From contig JBAZRF010000001.1 in NCBI GenBank assembly GCA_041663165.1, forward strand, positions 736 through 64,735: a stretch of DNA of 64,000 nt, written 5' to 3'. The DNA is from Minisyncoccota bacterium. Its GTDB lineage: Bacteria > Patescibacteriota > Minisyncoccia > Phycocordibacterales > XYD1-FULL-46-19. How positions within the stretch are numbered: the first letter of the stretch is position 1; each line of letters opens with the position of its first letter. The notes under the pieces were generated by a model. That model had not been told where the DNA came from, did no database searches, and saw only the letters and a program-made list of their open reading frames with translations. Shown piece after piece: positions 50,602 through 54,778 of the stretch. The translations under genes and the position numbers were made by a program.

Positions 50602-50875
50602 CCGCCACTACCTCAACGGTTGATTTTGTTTTGACCAAACCAGCAAAACTCAATTTACGTTTGGAGCCAAATTTAACTACACCCGGGACACTGGCGAAAA
50701 TAGTGTGGTCCTTGCCGAGGCGAGTATTTTTGCCAGCCATGATTTTCGTCCCGCGCTGGCGCACAATAATACTGCCCGCTTTAGCCGTTTGACCATCAGC
50801 CAACTTTGTTCCTAGATATTTAGGATTAGAATCACGTAGGTTTTTAGCAGTACCCCCTGCCTTACGATGTGCCAT
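50594..50875 (-). CDS. rpmA: 50S ribosomal protein L27
   Basis: [16 protein letters not shown]...IIVRQRGTK. Its 3' end overlaps rplI convergently by 8 nt. Confidence 0.9.
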
Positions 50876-50895
50876 ATTGGTATAATATTAACGAC

Positions 50896-51084
50896 ATGAG
50901 TATAAAGGAAATGACAGAAAAAGTAAAGTTTTATTCGTCTTGGTGGCGAGCTCGCGAGAAGGAATTATTTGTTGCTCTACTGGTTGTTTTGGTTGCCCTG
51001 TTATCGTTCGGCCTTGGCCGTTTATCAAAAATTGAAGGTTGCCAACAGCCGGTTCAGATTGAGAATGCTTTACAGACGCAGTAA
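50896..51084 (+). CDS. Small hypothetical membrane protein
   Basis: A TATAAT element lies at about 50881-50889. One TM helix. The start is moved to MSIKEM. Confidence 0.35.
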   Translation: MSIKEMTEKVKFYSSWWRAREKELFVALLVVLVALLSFGLGRLSKIEGCQQPVQIENALQTQ

Positions 51085-51152
51085 CGCCCCGGATCATACC
51101 GATCGATCCGAGGCGCCGTTGATGGGGAAGGAATATACGGGCGTTGTCGTTG

Positions 51153-51665
51153 CTAGTCCCAAACCAGCTCGGAGTATTCGAGCATGATCTGGTCGAGGCG
51201 TTCGGCCGTGAACTTGCCGGCGTCAACCTCTTCCTGGGTGACAATACCACACTTGACCATGTCGTTGATGATGGCCAAGGTTACTGCTGGACAGTTCTTG
51301 CTACGAGCGGCGTTGGTCACTCGCGACCAGAGTGTCTTCCCGCGGAAGTTTAGGCGAGACCATTCCCACCAATCCGTGTCTCTGGGGTCGCCAGCTAGGT
51401 TGGAGGTCCAGACGAAGTGCCACTCCAGATACTCTGGGTTGAAGTAGAAAGTTCGTTCGCCTAGAACTAGTGGCCAGACAAGTAGTCCGCCGTCCCAGCA
51501 TGGGCCGGCTAACTGATCGCCCTCGGGCATTTCCCAGTACCAGGCGGGGACGTCCAACCCTCGGATCCAATAGCACCCCTCAAAGGGGTTTCCGTCGGCT
51601 TGAACGGTTTGACAAACTGCAACCGACAACAACACGAGAACAAAGAACGCATACGACGACTTCAT
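51153..51665 (-). CDS. Hypothetical secreted Trp-rich protein, GC-rich foreign-looking gene
   Basis: Signal peptide MKSSYAFFVLVLLSVAVCQTVQA. 13 Trp. No recognisable domain. Confidence 0.5.
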   Translation of the reverse strand: MKSSYAFFVLVLLSVAVCQTVQADGNPFEGCYWIRGLDVPAWYWEMPEGDQLAGPCWDGGLLVWPLVLGERTFYFNPEYLEWHFVWTSNLAGDPRDTDWWEWSRLNFRGKTLWSRVTNAARSKNCPAVTLAIINDMVKCGIVTQEEVDAGKFTAERLDQIMLEYSELVWD

Positions 51666-51782
51666 GGGCAAATCCTTTCGCGTGGCGCCCTTTATTGGGC
51701 TGTGGGCGCCGGTAGTTCATCCGTGAAAAATTATAGGACAAAAATAAGATAAAAGCAAGTAATAGAATTATTATGAAAAAGA

Positions 51783-52075
51783 CAATTGCTCCCGGCGGTT
51801 TACCCTAACCGGGAGCAATTAGCCAAATGAATCCGTTTGAGATCAGGCACGACAGAGGAAGTGCCTTTGCCTTACACACCGCGGCTTGAAGCCCTTGACA
51901 GATGCGACAATCGAGCTGCCCTTTTCCCCGATATTCGATCTTCCTTCCGGGGTGGGGGATTTGCTCGACGTACTCTTTGTTTCTGCTGGGGGACTCCCAA
52001 GTCTTCGGAAGTGCATAGTTCTTTCTCCTGATTCGGAGTGGCCACAACGGTCACTCATCCTTCCATAAAAATCTT
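51783..52075 (-). ncRNA. Candidate GC-rich non-coding transcript (promoter TTGACT-17-TTAAGAT at ~52075-52110; 12-bp perfect IR terminator at 51784-51820)
   Basis: Only overlapping unconserved ORFs occur on both strands. A promoter-like element and a hairpin plus U-rich tract are on the minus strand. Confidence 0.25.
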
Positions 52076-52134
52076 AACATCGCAGTTGCCATGAAGTCAA
52101 CACATTGTCAACGGGGGATATTTAAAAAGCTGGC

Positions 52135-52143
52135 TGTGGATAA
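52135..52143 (-). promoter_or_regulatory. Perfect DnaA-box consensus (TTATCCACA on the minus strand)
   Basis: The plus strand reads TGTGGATAA, immediately upstream of the iteron-like repeats. Confidence 0.4.
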
Positions 52144-52152
52144 CTACTATAT

Positions 52153-52274
52153 ATGTCGCACAACATAGATTTTGCGACATAGCGCTAGAGCTAATCTAGC
52201 GCTAATGTTGCAAAATCTAATCTTGGCGCGACGTGCTTCCCTATCATGTCGCGCAAGATATTTTGCGGCATAGC
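52153..52274. repeat. Iteron-like array: three copies (direct, inverted, direct) of a ~30-34-bp element with core TAGATTTTGCGACATAGCGCT, plus a 9-bp palindrome AGCGCTAGA/TCTAGCGCT
   Basis: R1 52153-52186, inverted copy 52198-52234, R2 52246-52274. Aligned by eye. Confidence 0.6.
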
Positions 52275-52418
52275 TTTAATTTAATTATTTTATTTAAAAT
52301 ATTTTTCTCGCTTCTCCTAAACTCCGTCACTAATTTTACTAGTCCTTACCCCTAACATTTACTACCAAAAAACCGAAGGATTTAACCCTCCGGTTTTTTG
52401 GTTTTTTGCGTTGATCGA

Positions 52419-52928
52419 TTAGACAGACTTGCCAGTATCCTTACCCCAACAGGGCTTGCTCCAATTCCAATGACGGTTGCCTTCTTTCTTCATTAACCAC
52501 ATGGCGTACTCAATATTGTCGTTGGTCTTATGAATATCGAAGCCCAGAGCCTGACTTTGGCTAAGGTGGTACTTCTCATTGATTTGAAAGATGCCAACAT
52601 CTAGCGGATTTTTATCTCCGCGCATGGCTTTGCCATTTTCATCGTATTGACGAAAGGTGCTCTCGCAATTAGCGATCCGTAGAGCGGTATCGGCATGAAG
52701 ACCGTACTTGGCGCTCGTTTCGATGATTTGATCATAAACAGCGGCGCTGGCGGTAGTTGTTGGGCGCTCAATTGAATAAGTCTTCTCGATAACCGGTTGA
52801 TTGTTATCAAACCTGCTAGCAAGTAAGGGGTTAAGAGCCAAAGCTGGTCCCGTTGTTGAGCTCGCCGTAATGATGAGGCTTGCTAAGCCTATTTGTAGGG
52901 TTGAATAAATAAGCCAATTGAAAACCAC
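52419..52928 (-). CDS. Secreted lysozyme-like / transglycosylase-like domain protein
   Basis: N-terminal hydrophobic anchor. ...IANCEST...GDKNPLDVGIFQINEKYH resembles the catalytic Glu region of lysozyme-like (SLT/Rpf-type) folds. Confidence 0.5.
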   Translation of the reverse strand: MVFNWLIYSTLQIGLASLIITASSTTGPALALNPLLASRFDNNQPVIEKTYSIERPTTTASAAVYDQIIETSAKYGLHADTALRIANCESTFRQYDENGKAMRGDKNPLDVGIFQINEKYHLSQSQALGFDIHKTNDNIEYAMWLMKKEGNRHWNWSKPCWGKDTGKSV

Positions 52929-53191
52929 CTATCGCTTAAGGGCCACAACGGCCAAGCGGTAAATAGTTTAATAAAAACGAGCCTTTTTCTTAATTTCGAC
53001 GATGCCAGCCTTACGGCCGGTTTATCCTACCCAACTAATGCTATTGGTGTAAGCTAACTCTTGACAATAGTAGGATATATGTAGTCTAGCATAAGAGGGC
53101 TTAAAAGTCAACCCAAAAGGGGAGTTTCTACTCCCCTTTTGACTAAAAAACCCTTATTTTATAACGTTATTTTAGAATTAAGGTTTTCTGC

Positions 53192-53482
53192 CTATTTACT
53201 TAAAAATGGTATTTTTAATCCCGAGAGCCAATTGGGCAGACCTTGGCCTTTAAATATCGTATTCCAAGCCTGGCCAATCGGCCCGGCGAGGTATTCTTGA
53301 TACAAATCGGCCAACCAATCCCAGGCCCTAAGGACTATTTGCCAAACGTAGCCAAAATTGGCCCGCCCGGTGTCACTCTCAGCAATCTTCTGCAGATTGA
53401 TTCCCAGATAGCTTAAGATGATAATGGCCACAATTAGTAAAATTATTAATTTTACTAAACCCGATTGAGAGTTGTTGTTCAT
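53192..53482 (-). CDS. Small hypothetical membrane protein
   Basis: One N-terminal TM helix. 96 aa. Confidence 0.4.
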   Translation of the reverse strand: MNNNSQSGLVKLIILLIVAIIILSYLGINLQKIAESDTGRANFGYVWQIVLRAWDWLADLYQEYLAGPIGQAWNTIFKGQGLPNWLSGLKIPFLSK

Positions 53483-53491
53483 ATGCTTATA

Positions 53492-54778
53492 TTATAAATA
53501 ATTTAAGGGATTTAGGTAAGCGTTATAGGAAGCAATTGGCAAAGTATAGGTACCGCAACCAGGCACTTTGCTCTTGAGCGAACTTACTTTTACTCCGTCT
53601 GAAGCATAGAGCGAAAAATGCAAATGGGGTCCAGTTGAGTAGCCGGTGTTACCAGAAAGAGCAATGACCTCTCCCCGCTTAACGCTTTGGCCAATATTAA
53701 CTTTGATTGAAGAAAGATGACCATAGAGCGTCGAAAGCCCATTATCATGTTTGATCAAAATCCATTTACCGAAAGAAGCTCCGGCACAGGTTTTATCGGT
53801 ATCGCCGGTTCCCGCAACCTGTCCATTTTCGGCAGAACGTATTTGGTCGCCAATATTGGCCGCGAGGTCAATGCCATTATGGCCTTTGCCGTTATAGACT
53901 GTCTGATGGCTCTGGGCGAAGTCGGTATTGCCAAAACCCTGAGTGATAAGATGTTTAAGCAATGGCCAGCCGATGGTGCCGGTACCGGTGCTTGGTAATT
54001 TGCTCGGATCAAGAGCGTAGCGCAAATCGGCTTCAGCTTTGGCAATCTCGGCCTCGACTTCCTGTTTTTTCTTTTTGCGGTCGGCGAGCAGTTTTTGGTA
54101 AGCCGATTCTTTGCTCTTGGTCTCAGTTAGCAAGGTGTTCTTAACTTGCTTGGTAATATCAACGGCTTGTTTTTGATCAGAGAGATCTCCTTTTAAATCA
54201 GCTAACTTGTTTTTTTCTTGCTCCTTTTGGCTCTTGTTTACTTCGAGAATCTGTTTGTCGCCCCTTAAGCTGGCAACATGATTATTTAGTTTTTCGCTCA
54301 AGGATTGAAATTTACCGAGATTGTCCCAGAGATCAGTCAGACGGTTAACACTCGCTATTATCTCTGGCAGGTTGCTAGTTTCGGTTTGCTTAATTTCGCG
54401 TAGCGTCTCAGCGAGAACAGTTTTATCATCGGTGATTTTTTCAGCTGTCGTCTGAATATTTTTTGCCAGGTTATTAATATTACTATCGGTTATCACAATC
54501 TTGTTTTGCGTTGAGACGAGGCTTGTTTGTAGTTTTTGTCTCGTCAAGTCAATTTGCTGAATTTCTTTTTTGAGAGAGTTGCCCTGTTGCCTCGTCGTGT
54601 CGATTTTTTGTTCATATTGTTTTATTTCCTCATCCAATTTTTTTACCGTATTTTGCCGATCACTAATTGTGCTCTTAATTTCATCAACCGAAACTGCTAA
54701 CAAAACGCTAAAAGTAAATAAATTAACGATTACAAAAAGTAAACTTAAAAATATATTAATTAAGAATTTTTTGTGCAT
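53492..54778 (-). CDS. M23 family metallopeptidase with N-terminal coiled coil (EnvC-like)
   Basis: HNGIDLAA...GNTGYSTGPHLHFSLY (HxxxD / HxH M23 motifs). Long coiled coil. Confidence 0.85.
   Translation of the reverse strand: MHKKFLINIFLSLLFVIVNLFTFSVLLAVSVDEIKSTISDRQNTVKKLDEEIKQYEQKIDTTRQQGNSLKKEIQQIDLTRQKLQTSLVSTQNKIVITDSNINNLAKNIQTTAEKITDDKTVLAETLREIKQTETSNLPEIIASVNRLTDLWDNLGKFQSLSEKLNNHVASLRGDKQILEVNKSQKEQEKNKLADLKGDLSDQKQAVDITKQVKNTLLTETKSKESAYQKLLADRKKKKQEVEAEIAKAEADLRYALDPSKLPSTGTGTIGWPLLKHLITQGFGNTDFAQSHQTVYNGKGHNGIDLAANIGDQIRSAENGQVAGTGDTDKTCAGASFGKWILIKHDNGLSTLYGHLSSIKVNIGQSVKRGEVIALSGNTGYSTGPHLHFSLYASDGVKVSSLKSKVPGCGTYTLPIASYNAYLNPLNYL

Follow-up and report, generated by a model that had tools for sequence, protein, structure and literature searches.

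The closest described counterparts of the locus analyzed here are the chromosome dimer resolution systems of Escherichia coli (XerC/XerD acting at dif) and Bacillus subtilis (CodV/RipX acting at dif), together with the translocases FtsK and SpoIIIE and the polar words known as KOPS (FtsK-orienting polar sequences) and SRS (SpoIIIE recognition sequences). The locus is an array of three related dyads, designated A, C and D, at positions 52153-52271 of a 64-kb stretch of DNA from a Paceibacterota bacterium, a member of the Candidate Phyla Radiation (CPR); this entire stretch is referred to as the window, and all coordinates are those of the window. Judging from its sequence, the core dyad, copy A, is very probably the chromosomal dif site of this bacterium, positioned at the replication terminus, and the case for this assignment is built on its architecture, its occurrence in a single copy, its conservation, the convergent polarity of the flanking DNA and the linkage to Xer genes in other genomes. 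The correspondence with E. coli and B. subtilis dif includes the length of 28 bp, with 11-bp arms and a 6-bp centre, the better conservation of one of the arms, and the intergenic location in what appears to be the terminus, where G-rich polar words invert. The differences are that the arms, GTCGCAAAA and TTGTGCGAC, are almost palindromic (10 of the 11 positions), that the polar word is RGGGGAG-like rather than GGGNAGGG, and that the Xer proteins encoded next to the site in CPR contigs score equally as XerC and XerD, with xer adjoining dif in some CPR lineages. Compared with the E. coli and B. subtilis dif sequences, copy A shares 16-17 of the 28 positions, the same level of match that has been reported for archaeal dif. 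A literature search for dif in CPR/Patescibacteria turned up nothing directly relevant and no paper describing dif in this group.

The array consists of the following elements:

52153-52180, - strand (canonical): copy A, the putative core dif site, an 11+6+11 dyad of 28 bp

52180-52204, no strand: palindromic spacer between the core and dyad C, TAGCGCTAGA-gctaa-TCTAGCGCTA, with 10-nt arms and an N5 loop

52205-52234, + strand: dyad C, dif-like, 30 bp with an 8-bp spacer, inverted relative to the core

52246-52271, - strand: dyad D, dif-like, 26 bp with a 4-bp spacer, oriented as the core

On the + strand, copy A reads ATGTCGCACAA CATAGA TTTTGCGACAT, with the 11-nt arms symmetric at 10 of 11 positions around the 6-bp centre; in the canonical orientation (- strand), it is ATGTCGCAAAA TCTATG TTGTGCGACAT, that is, the left arm, the 6-bp centre and the near-invariant right arm. 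Dyads C (ATGTTGCAAAA TCTAATCT TGGCGCGACGT) and D (on the - strand, ATGCCGCAAAA TATC TTGCGCGACAT) likewise consist of two 11-nt arms each, so that the three dyads differ in their spacers of 6, 8 and 4 bp, and the arms of C and D match 8-10 of the 11 consensus bases. Both are on the side of the left arm, in the stretch that separates the core from the terminator of the SLT-like lytic transglycosylase gene (hereafter SLT). The spacer and the adjacent arms make up an imperfect ~54-nt palindrome (52166-52219), with its centre near 52192. Across the window, the half-site words are not more common than in shuffled sequences, and the half-sites of all three dyads fall within 120 bp; this clustering indicates that the array is not a product of chance. 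No further copies of the repeat are present elsewhere in the 64 kb.

The original prediction for this region, made from the letters of the DNA, comprised three repeats, a palindrome and a perfect DnaA box, and all of these are indeed present. The repeat units described there as roughly 30 bp long are three related dyads, but their actual sizes are 28, 30 and 26 bp, due to the unequal spacers. The description of the region as AT-rich applies only to 52275-52424 (GC content of 0.31); the GC content of the repeat stretch itself is 0.40-0.44, close to the window mean of ~0.44. The suggestion that a dimeric DNA-binding protein has several target sites here was right in spirit, given that the dyads have the architecture of sites for Xer-type tyrosine recombinases.

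The conservation of copy A was traced across related or pattern-matched contigs, numbered L001-L244, with W denoting the window. Using the 169-amino acid (aa) SLT-like protein, 43 loci were retrieved from GTDB genomes, all of them from Paceibacterota or Patescibacteria. In most of these 43 loci, the gene order is GluRS-M23-mem96-SLT-[gap]-L27, after which come L9-CtpA, encoded on the other strand, and CorA; the gap between SLT and L27 ranges from ~400 to 2300 nt and, in its shortest (basal) form, the SLT and small membrane-protein genes converge on the gap. Copy A is found in 30 of the 43 loci, exactly once in each, in one orientation and in the same syntenic place. It is often letter-identical across these 30 loci, with the flanking proteins merely 40-80% identical and the surrounding non-coding DNA unalignable; on this comparison, copy A is among the most conserved non-coding elements of the lineage. 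The right arm, TTGTGCGAC, is almost invariant, and the variation is concentrated in the outer left arm and the 6-bp centre. In some genomes, the outermost two bases change symmetrically (GTGTCGC...GCGACAC; ACGTCGC...GCGACGT), and a single strictly conserved position (AAAA-N6-TTGT) distinguishes the two arms. A position-weight matrix derived from 141 distinct sites yields the consensus ATGTCGCAAAA GATATA TTGTGCGACAT, and the dif consensus for the group can be written as RYGTCGCAAAA-N6-TTGTGCGACRY. Scanning 425 kb of loci plus the window with this matrix gave no additional site with 6-bp spacing. In all loci examined, the site is intergenic.

Beyond the GTDB genomes, the pattern CGCAAAA-N6-TTGTGCGAC is matched in 74 viral and at least 120 metagenome contigs, with one match per stretch. 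The dinucleotide GT occupies two adjacent positions that were not specified in the search in 60 of the 74 viral matches and in 102 of the 120 metagenome matches listed, compared with ~1 in 16 expected by chance, and this enrichment beyond the searched bases indicates that most of the pattern matches are true members of the family. The neighbours of the 28-mer are diverse, namely, SLT and L27, an ABC permease and M23, xer and gyrA, or phage terminase genes, and the DNA on either side of the site differs in content between genomes.

Several features of the flanking DNA change direction at or near the site. In the window, the cumulative G-C count rises from position 1 and peaks at 51473, and the left-minus-right difference in skew is positive in 20 of 22 loci. 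Up to ~40 kb, most genes of the window are on the + strand, and past that point most are on the - strand. When words pointing inward from both sides were sought in an unbiased k-mer search, AGGGGA, GGGGAG and GGGGGA came out far ahead of the rest. Within the window, AGGGGA occurs on the + strand, with the ratio of 22:2, up to 52152, and on the - strand beyond 53131; examples of the polar word are found at 1330, 2956, 6099, 42300 and 46747 (+ strand) and at 53132, 54893, 55650 and 62334 (- strand). AGGGGA is on the + strand even inside genes of the - strand (2956, 3409, 6099, 42300, 44686 and 46747), which shows that the word does not follow transcription. When the polar words are pooled over 30 syntenic loci, the top:bottom counts are 203:43 to the left of the site and 43:277 to the right (Fisher 2e-65); for metagenome contigs found by the DNA pattern alone, which represent varied gene contexts and are independent of the GTDB loci, the respective counts are 241:64 and 60:305 (8e-63). 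On the phage contigs that carry the site, no convergence of polar words was detected. The polarity flips exactly at the site (500-nt bins, 135 non-redundant loci), and inward-pointing words are denser, 2.4 per kb, in the first 500 nt past the right arm. Three 8-mers, AGGGGAGA, GCGGGGGA and AGGGGAGG, have ratios of 41:1, 37:1 and 34:1, respectively, in the pooled loci. By analogy with known systems, the G-rich words are a candidate FtsK-orienting (KOPS-like) motif for Paceibacterota. The joint convergence of skew, gene direction and polar word points to a terminus and not to an origin; inversion of polar words at the site has been used as a criterion in published dif predictions (PMC3025954, PMC2958812, PMC5357621).

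The linkage to recombinase genes comes from other genomes. A tblastn search with the E. coli XerD sequence detected no tyrosine recombinase in the window or in the syntenic loci, and DnaA, DnaN, FtsK and Xer were not found in Pfam scans of 20 open reading frames (ORFs) of the window. Among 237 loci, there are 10 tyrosine recombinases, 9 of which are encoded within 1.2 kb of the site. Six of the recombinases are full-length Xer-family proteins, with 33-37% identity to E. coli XerD; all six reach 240-260 bits with the NCBIfam models of XerC and XerD alike, and three are above the NCBIfam cut-off for archaeal XerA. All six genes (in L129, L136, L145, L172, L183 and L214) are on the left-arm side of the site and read away from it, and the distance between xer and the site is 0.3-1.2 kb in these six metagenome contigs and in two large CPR genome contigs. 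This family of linked Xer proteins is large and well conserved, and its members are named in the source databases as XerD or tyrosine recombinase from Patescibacteria or Shapirobacteria. The association was put to a prospective test, for which two family members were chosen by protein alone, on contigs of 735 kb and 1.1 Mb. Both contigs, from which L242 and L244 derive, carry the 28-mer 390-690 nt upstream of xer, with the relative orientation unchanged and the polar words converging. In these two loci (L242:4612 and L244:4309), gyrA and gyrB follow xer, convergently.

Thus, copy A combines the features by which dif is recognized at the sequence level, that is, a dyad of ~28 bp, conservation as a single intergenic copy and terminus polarity. 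In the proposed mechanism, Xer-family tyrosine recombinases would bind both arms of the 28-bp site and exchange strands across the 6-bp centre, adding a crossover that would convert chromosome dimers to monomers, and the polar words would guide an FtsK-like translocase toward the site. Compared with single-recombinase systems, the presence of the recombinase gene next to the site in several CPR contigs resembles XerS-difSL of streptococci and lactococci, and the highly symmetric arms, along with the three linked proteins that pass the XerA cut-off, resemble archaeal XerA-dif. Unlike difSL, with its 11-bp centre, and XerH-difH of Helicobacter and Campylobacter, where the centre is up to 10 bp, the site described here has a 6-bp centre, and the strong polar words argue for guidance of the FtsK type, which sets it apart from the archaeal system; archaea are not known to have such guidance. 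A further difference is that there is no xer within 10 kb of the site in the lineage of the window.

Several points weigh against the identification of the array with a dif locus. The 64-kb window contains no Xer or FtsK gene, so that the cognate recombinase is assumed to be encoded elsewhere in this genome. Given the near-palindromic arms and linked Xer proteins that cannot be assigned clearly to XerC or to XerD, the system may involve either one or two recombinases, even though the arms are unequally conserved and have the one fixed difference noted above. The uniqueness of the site pertains to the 64 kb and the collected loci, and uniqueness in the whole genome as well as the position opposite oriC lie beyond the window. 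The GC skew is weak near the site, and the skew pooled over loci is confounded by shared synteny; the label 'KOPS-like' for the polar word is given purely by analogy. Finally, most loci, the close relatives L002-L005 and L240 among them, lack the extra dyads, which therefore cannot be essential and may be relics. If copy A is indeed dif, the consensus combined with the inverting polar word provides a landmark of the terminus for CPR genomes, one that can help orient and check metagenome-assembled genomes and study segregation in bacteria that cannot be cultured alone.

Dyads C and D have counterparts in a small number of loci. L239 and L241, which were reached via homologues of orf172, a gene next to the array, encode proteins 72-98% identical to those of the window and share its layout, with a direct dyad with a 4-bp spacer at -77/-87, an inverted dyad with a 10-bp spacer at -44/-46, and the core; the DNA between the dyads is unalignable among the window, L239 and L241. 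In L165, where an ABC permease gene and M23 converge on the site, a direct dyad with a 5-bp spacer and an inverted dyad with a 10-bp spacer occur twice in succession, followed by the core. The oriented coordinates of this array are L165:1590-1762, with four extra dyads in alternating orientation and spacers of 5, 10, 5 and 10 bp; L210 contains several degenerate dif-like dyads on the left side, with spacers of 5-12 bp, and arrays are also found in L177 and L064. High-quality extra dyads occur on the left-arm side in six loci and on the right side in none. In the window, L239, L241 and L165, the inverted dyad is separated from the core by a self-complementary spacer, with a different sequence in each. 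The respective palindromes are at 52166-52219 in the window, L239:3425-3496 and L241:927-1000. This divergence among the spacer palindromes points either to a continuing homogenisation between the halves or to selection that favours a hairpin or cruciform.

The persistence of the same layout in diverged relatives and in an unrelated gene context is the basis for regarding dyads C and D as Xer-binding sites at which no crossover occurs, whether accessory, decoy or kept alike by concerted evolution; this is a tentative interpretation, to which we assign somewhat less than an even chance. Comparable recombination sites have accessory subsites for the recombinase. The res site of Tn3/gamma-delta consists of subsites I-III with different spacers, the internal recombination site (IRS) of TnpI in Tn4430 and attI of integrons are similarly divided into subsites, and in cer and psi, the accessory sequences are on the XerC side. 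The suggested resemblance to res, IRS, attI and cer/psi lies in the combination of a crossover site with two further dyads that have the same arm motif and different spacers, all on one side of the core and within ~120 bp. The locus differs from those of the res/cer type in that most of the relatives lack the extra dyads and that one of the extra dyads is inverted. No chromosomal dif site is known to need accessory sites.

Nearly as likely, with a probability also short of even, dyads C and D are functionless leftovers, either palindromic duplications or scars of elements that were integrated by Xer. Such an origin would account for the absence of dyads of this type from most loci, for the spacers of 4 and 8-10 bp, which are unsuited to strand exchange, for the variable DNA content on both sides of the site, and for the tandem duplication of the unit in L165. 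It fares less well with the retention of orientation, spacer class and side in the window, L239 and L241 despite the unalignable non-coding DNA and a protein identity of only 72-83%, with the recurrence of the layout in the different gene context of L165, with the 8-10 of 11 consensus bases that the arms have kept, and with the lack of any element enclosed between the copies or of a second site at the far end of the adjacent GC-rich segment. Sequence alone cannot separate leftovers from accessory sites.

The same 28-bp site is carried by ~60 contigs of tailed phages from IMG/VR (among L045-L118), in an intergenic switch region, just upstream of the terminase genes (for example, at L045:3469, L046:5333, L053:1902 and L062:6209). 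These viral contigs represent genuine tailed phages, with genes for the large terminase, small terminase and portal protein; among 133 ORFs within 3 kb of the phage site, there are at least 13 large terminases, 5 portals and 1 integrase. The terminase genes of L045, L046, L053 and L062 are located left of the site, beyond its left arm, and are transcribed away from it. A site identical to that of the host without an integrase nearby suggests that these phages may use the host Xer for integration, circularisation or multimer resolution, and the presence of the site connects these phages to CPR hosts. As a side observation, TAACAGGGGT or its complement is found beside the site on phage contigs such as L046, L075, L098, L101, L111, L113 and L118, and hairpins of the GGCTCAACnGAGCC type flank the site on both sides in some metagenome contigs (L100, L120, L170, L187 and L205).

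Integrative mobile elements exploiting Xer (IMEX) include CTXphi, VGJphi, TLCphi and the gonococcal genetic island. The phages described here resemble IMEX in being mobile genomes that carry a host dif-like site, mostly without an integrase of their own, and the chromosomal locus resembles their integration loci in the variable DNA beside dif and in the degenerate dif-like copies next to the functional one. They differ from IMEX in that the carriers are tailed phages with terminase and portal genes rather than filamentous phages or islands, and in that no integrated element bounded by two sites is seen here. An integrated IMEX at dif was considered for the window itself and rejected: there is no second site past orf172 and nothing between D, C and A. 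A literature search for tailed-phage IMEX found nothing directly relevant.

The occurrence of the identical 28-mer on ~60 tailed-phage contigs would also be expected if the chromosomal copy were simply an attB for phage integrases, without a role in dimer resolution. This appears very unlikely, with a single integrase among the 133 ORFs around the phage sites, and with the chromosomal site linked to housekeeping-type Xer genes and situated exactly at the polarity switch; besides, a dif site can double as attB, so that attachment and dimer resolution are not mutually exclusive.

On the right-arm side of copy A, there are three further elements:

52135-52145, - strand: a DnaA-box-like 11-mer, AGTTATCCACA, which contains a perfect TTATCCACA, 7 nt past the right arm

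52113-52118, + strand: GGGGGA, the nearest polar word (KOPS-like), pointing at the site, with a C-run conserved there in relatives

52071-52111, - strand: a promoter-like block, TTGACA followed by TTGACT-18-TAAGAT, reading away from the site to a small ORF and orf172

The perfect DnaA box, TGTGGATAA, is at 52135-52143, 9 nt from copy A. There is no cluster of DnaA boxes: this is the one box within 1 kb, and there is one other perfect box in the 64 kb. This offset of the 11-mer is shared by at least 14 loci, among them the window, L002-L007, L026, L132, L142, L203, L239 and L240, as well as L241 with one mismatch; in L006 and L007, the offset is 6 nt. In further loci, the 11-mer is 50-220 nt away from the site, invariably to its right and with the orientation unchanged, and over all loci, 32 perfect boxes are located within ~300 nt of the site compared with ~6 expected. 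L083 has two inverted AGTTATCCACA boxes to the right of the site. The TTGACA block is conserved in relatives that have the DnaA box and reads into genes that differ between lineages. From these comparisons, the DnaA-box 11-mer, the inward G-run and the promoter are a conserved right-arm module that reads into variable cargo. In part of the group, the DnaA box is a genuine and conserved companion of the site, and not an origin.

The promoter-like block raises the question of transcriptional control, in which the dyads, 40-170 bp upstream of it, would be the operator for a dimeric transcription factor controlling the promoter at 52071-52111, the small ORF and orf172. The chance of this being the role of the array is very slim: the 28-mer is kept whatever the neighbouring genes are, it is present without the promoter module in the basal loci, and the exact flip of polarity at the site has no regulatory explanation.

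Combining these elements with copy A as dif, a broader scheme can be envisaged in which dif of this sub-lineage is an extended res-like locus, in which C and D, as non-exchanging Xer-binding dyads, and the DnaA box together shape or gate recombination, and tailed phages exploit the host Xer. This scheme is speculative and, on balance, unlikely; a lifestyle that exploits Xer has so far been known only from filamentous phages and genomic islands. If the scheme is true, tailed CPR phages that carry the host dif beside the terminase would use the host Xer, in place of their own integrase, to integrate, circularise or resolve multimers. The extra dyads and the phased DnaA box are testable departures from the textbook dif.

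The alternating orientation of the dyads and the strong fold of the array as single-stranded DNA, a three-way junction with an energy of -43.9 kcal/mol (z = -8.6), are the kind of features shown by dispersed palindromes such as repetitive extragenic palindromes and bacterial interspersed mosaic elements (REP/BIME), structured RNAs or terminator hairpins. An array of this kind is hard to reconcile with a single cluster in 64 kb and with one site in each locus, and the search for additional ~30-bp copies, which the original prediction had proposed, shows that the repeat is not dispersed in the window. Rfam searches at gathering or E-value thresholds gave no match in the region or close to it, the array is downstream of a separate terminator, variants of the left arm break the hairpin pairing while the right arm stays fixed, and the same site occurs in unrelated transcriptional contexts, all of which makes these explanations highly improbable. 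A terminator or RNA hairpin formed by the core dyad itself was rejected because the left-arm variants unpair it and a separate terminator is present.

The replication origin that figured in the original prediction (oriC, or an iteron-bearing origin of a plasmid or phage, where the repeats would bind the initiator and the box would recruit DnaA) could draw on the perfect DnaA box beside the repeats, its conservation and phasing in relatives, and the AT-rich stretch at 52275-52424, but it is practically discounted by the single box in place of a cluster, the skew maximum and the convergence of skew, gene orientation and polar word where an origin would show divergence, the lack of rep, dnaA and dnaN among the scanned ORFs in a neighbourhood of the SLT-like gene, orf172 and L27, the unequal spacers and direct-inverted-direct order of the dyads as opposed to iterons, which are direct repeats of ~17-22 bp with regular spacing, and the presence of one dyad only in most genomes. 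The switch in strand composition that was to be sought in the GC skew does exist here, with the sign opposite to that of an origin, that is, terminus-like.

The window consists of chromosomal DNA with housekeeping genes, including those for GluRS, CysRS, MurG, penicillin-binding proteins, PriA, Obg, L27 and L9. The site is bordered by a segment with GC content of 53-61% (51000-52050), and the surrounding features are as follows:

50869-51084, + strand: small membrane-protein gene, reading toward the site; a truncated form of the 110-130-aa protein of basal relatives

51153-51671, - strand: orf172, encoding a Trp-rich, lineage-restricted protein with a signal-peptide-like N-terminus

51843-52058, - strand: possible 71-aa ORF, preceded by GGAAGGA

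52364-52402, no strand: hairpin with T-runs on both strands, likely the terminator of the SLT gene, separating this gene from the array

52419-52928, - strand: SLT-like lytic transglycosylase gene, transcribed toward the site; the synteny anchor

The protein encoded by orf172 (hypothetical protein WC640_00295 in the NCBI annotation) has no Pfam hits and has homologues at 63% and 36% identity. Homologues are encoded in the same position in L239, L240 and L241, with more distant ones in L006 and L007, and orf172 is absent from L002-L005 and the basal genomes. The search for conservation of the possible 71-aa ORF yielded only a weak match of 16 residues to an ORF at the same place in L239. The array had been placed at the boundary of a putative foreign insert; the DNA is indeed variable on both sides of the site across genomes, but orf172 is syntenic in relatives and no second site is present. 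Specifically, neither the GC-rich segment nor the variable inserts have another dif-like site at their borders in scans with relaxed arms, the position-weight matrix or half-sites, none is present beyond orf172 in W, L239, L240 or L241, and tblastx showed no similarity between the GC-rich segment and the phage contigs. The possibility that this segment is a structured RNA was rejected given that it has no Rfam match and holds a real gene, orf172.

In an independent assembly, ERZ27249449, a contig is 100% identical to 51287-53682 and breaks at 51287, inside orf172 (the end of L001); this break within the GC-rich segment may reflect strain variation or a change in coverage. The small membrane protein diverging from L27 (50869-51084, + strand; 50876-51152) is ~60-70 aa long here, and its counterparts of 110-130 aa in basal relatives have a KYHxPxC...NCPGL domain at the C-terminus. 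In the window and in the relatives examined, L27 is not preceded by an L21 gene. Downstream of the gene for the 96-aa membrane protein, at 53113-53142, there is a perfect hairpin with a 13-bp stem, CCAAAAGGGGAG...CTCCCCTTTTG, which is terminator-like and carries the polar word on both strands.

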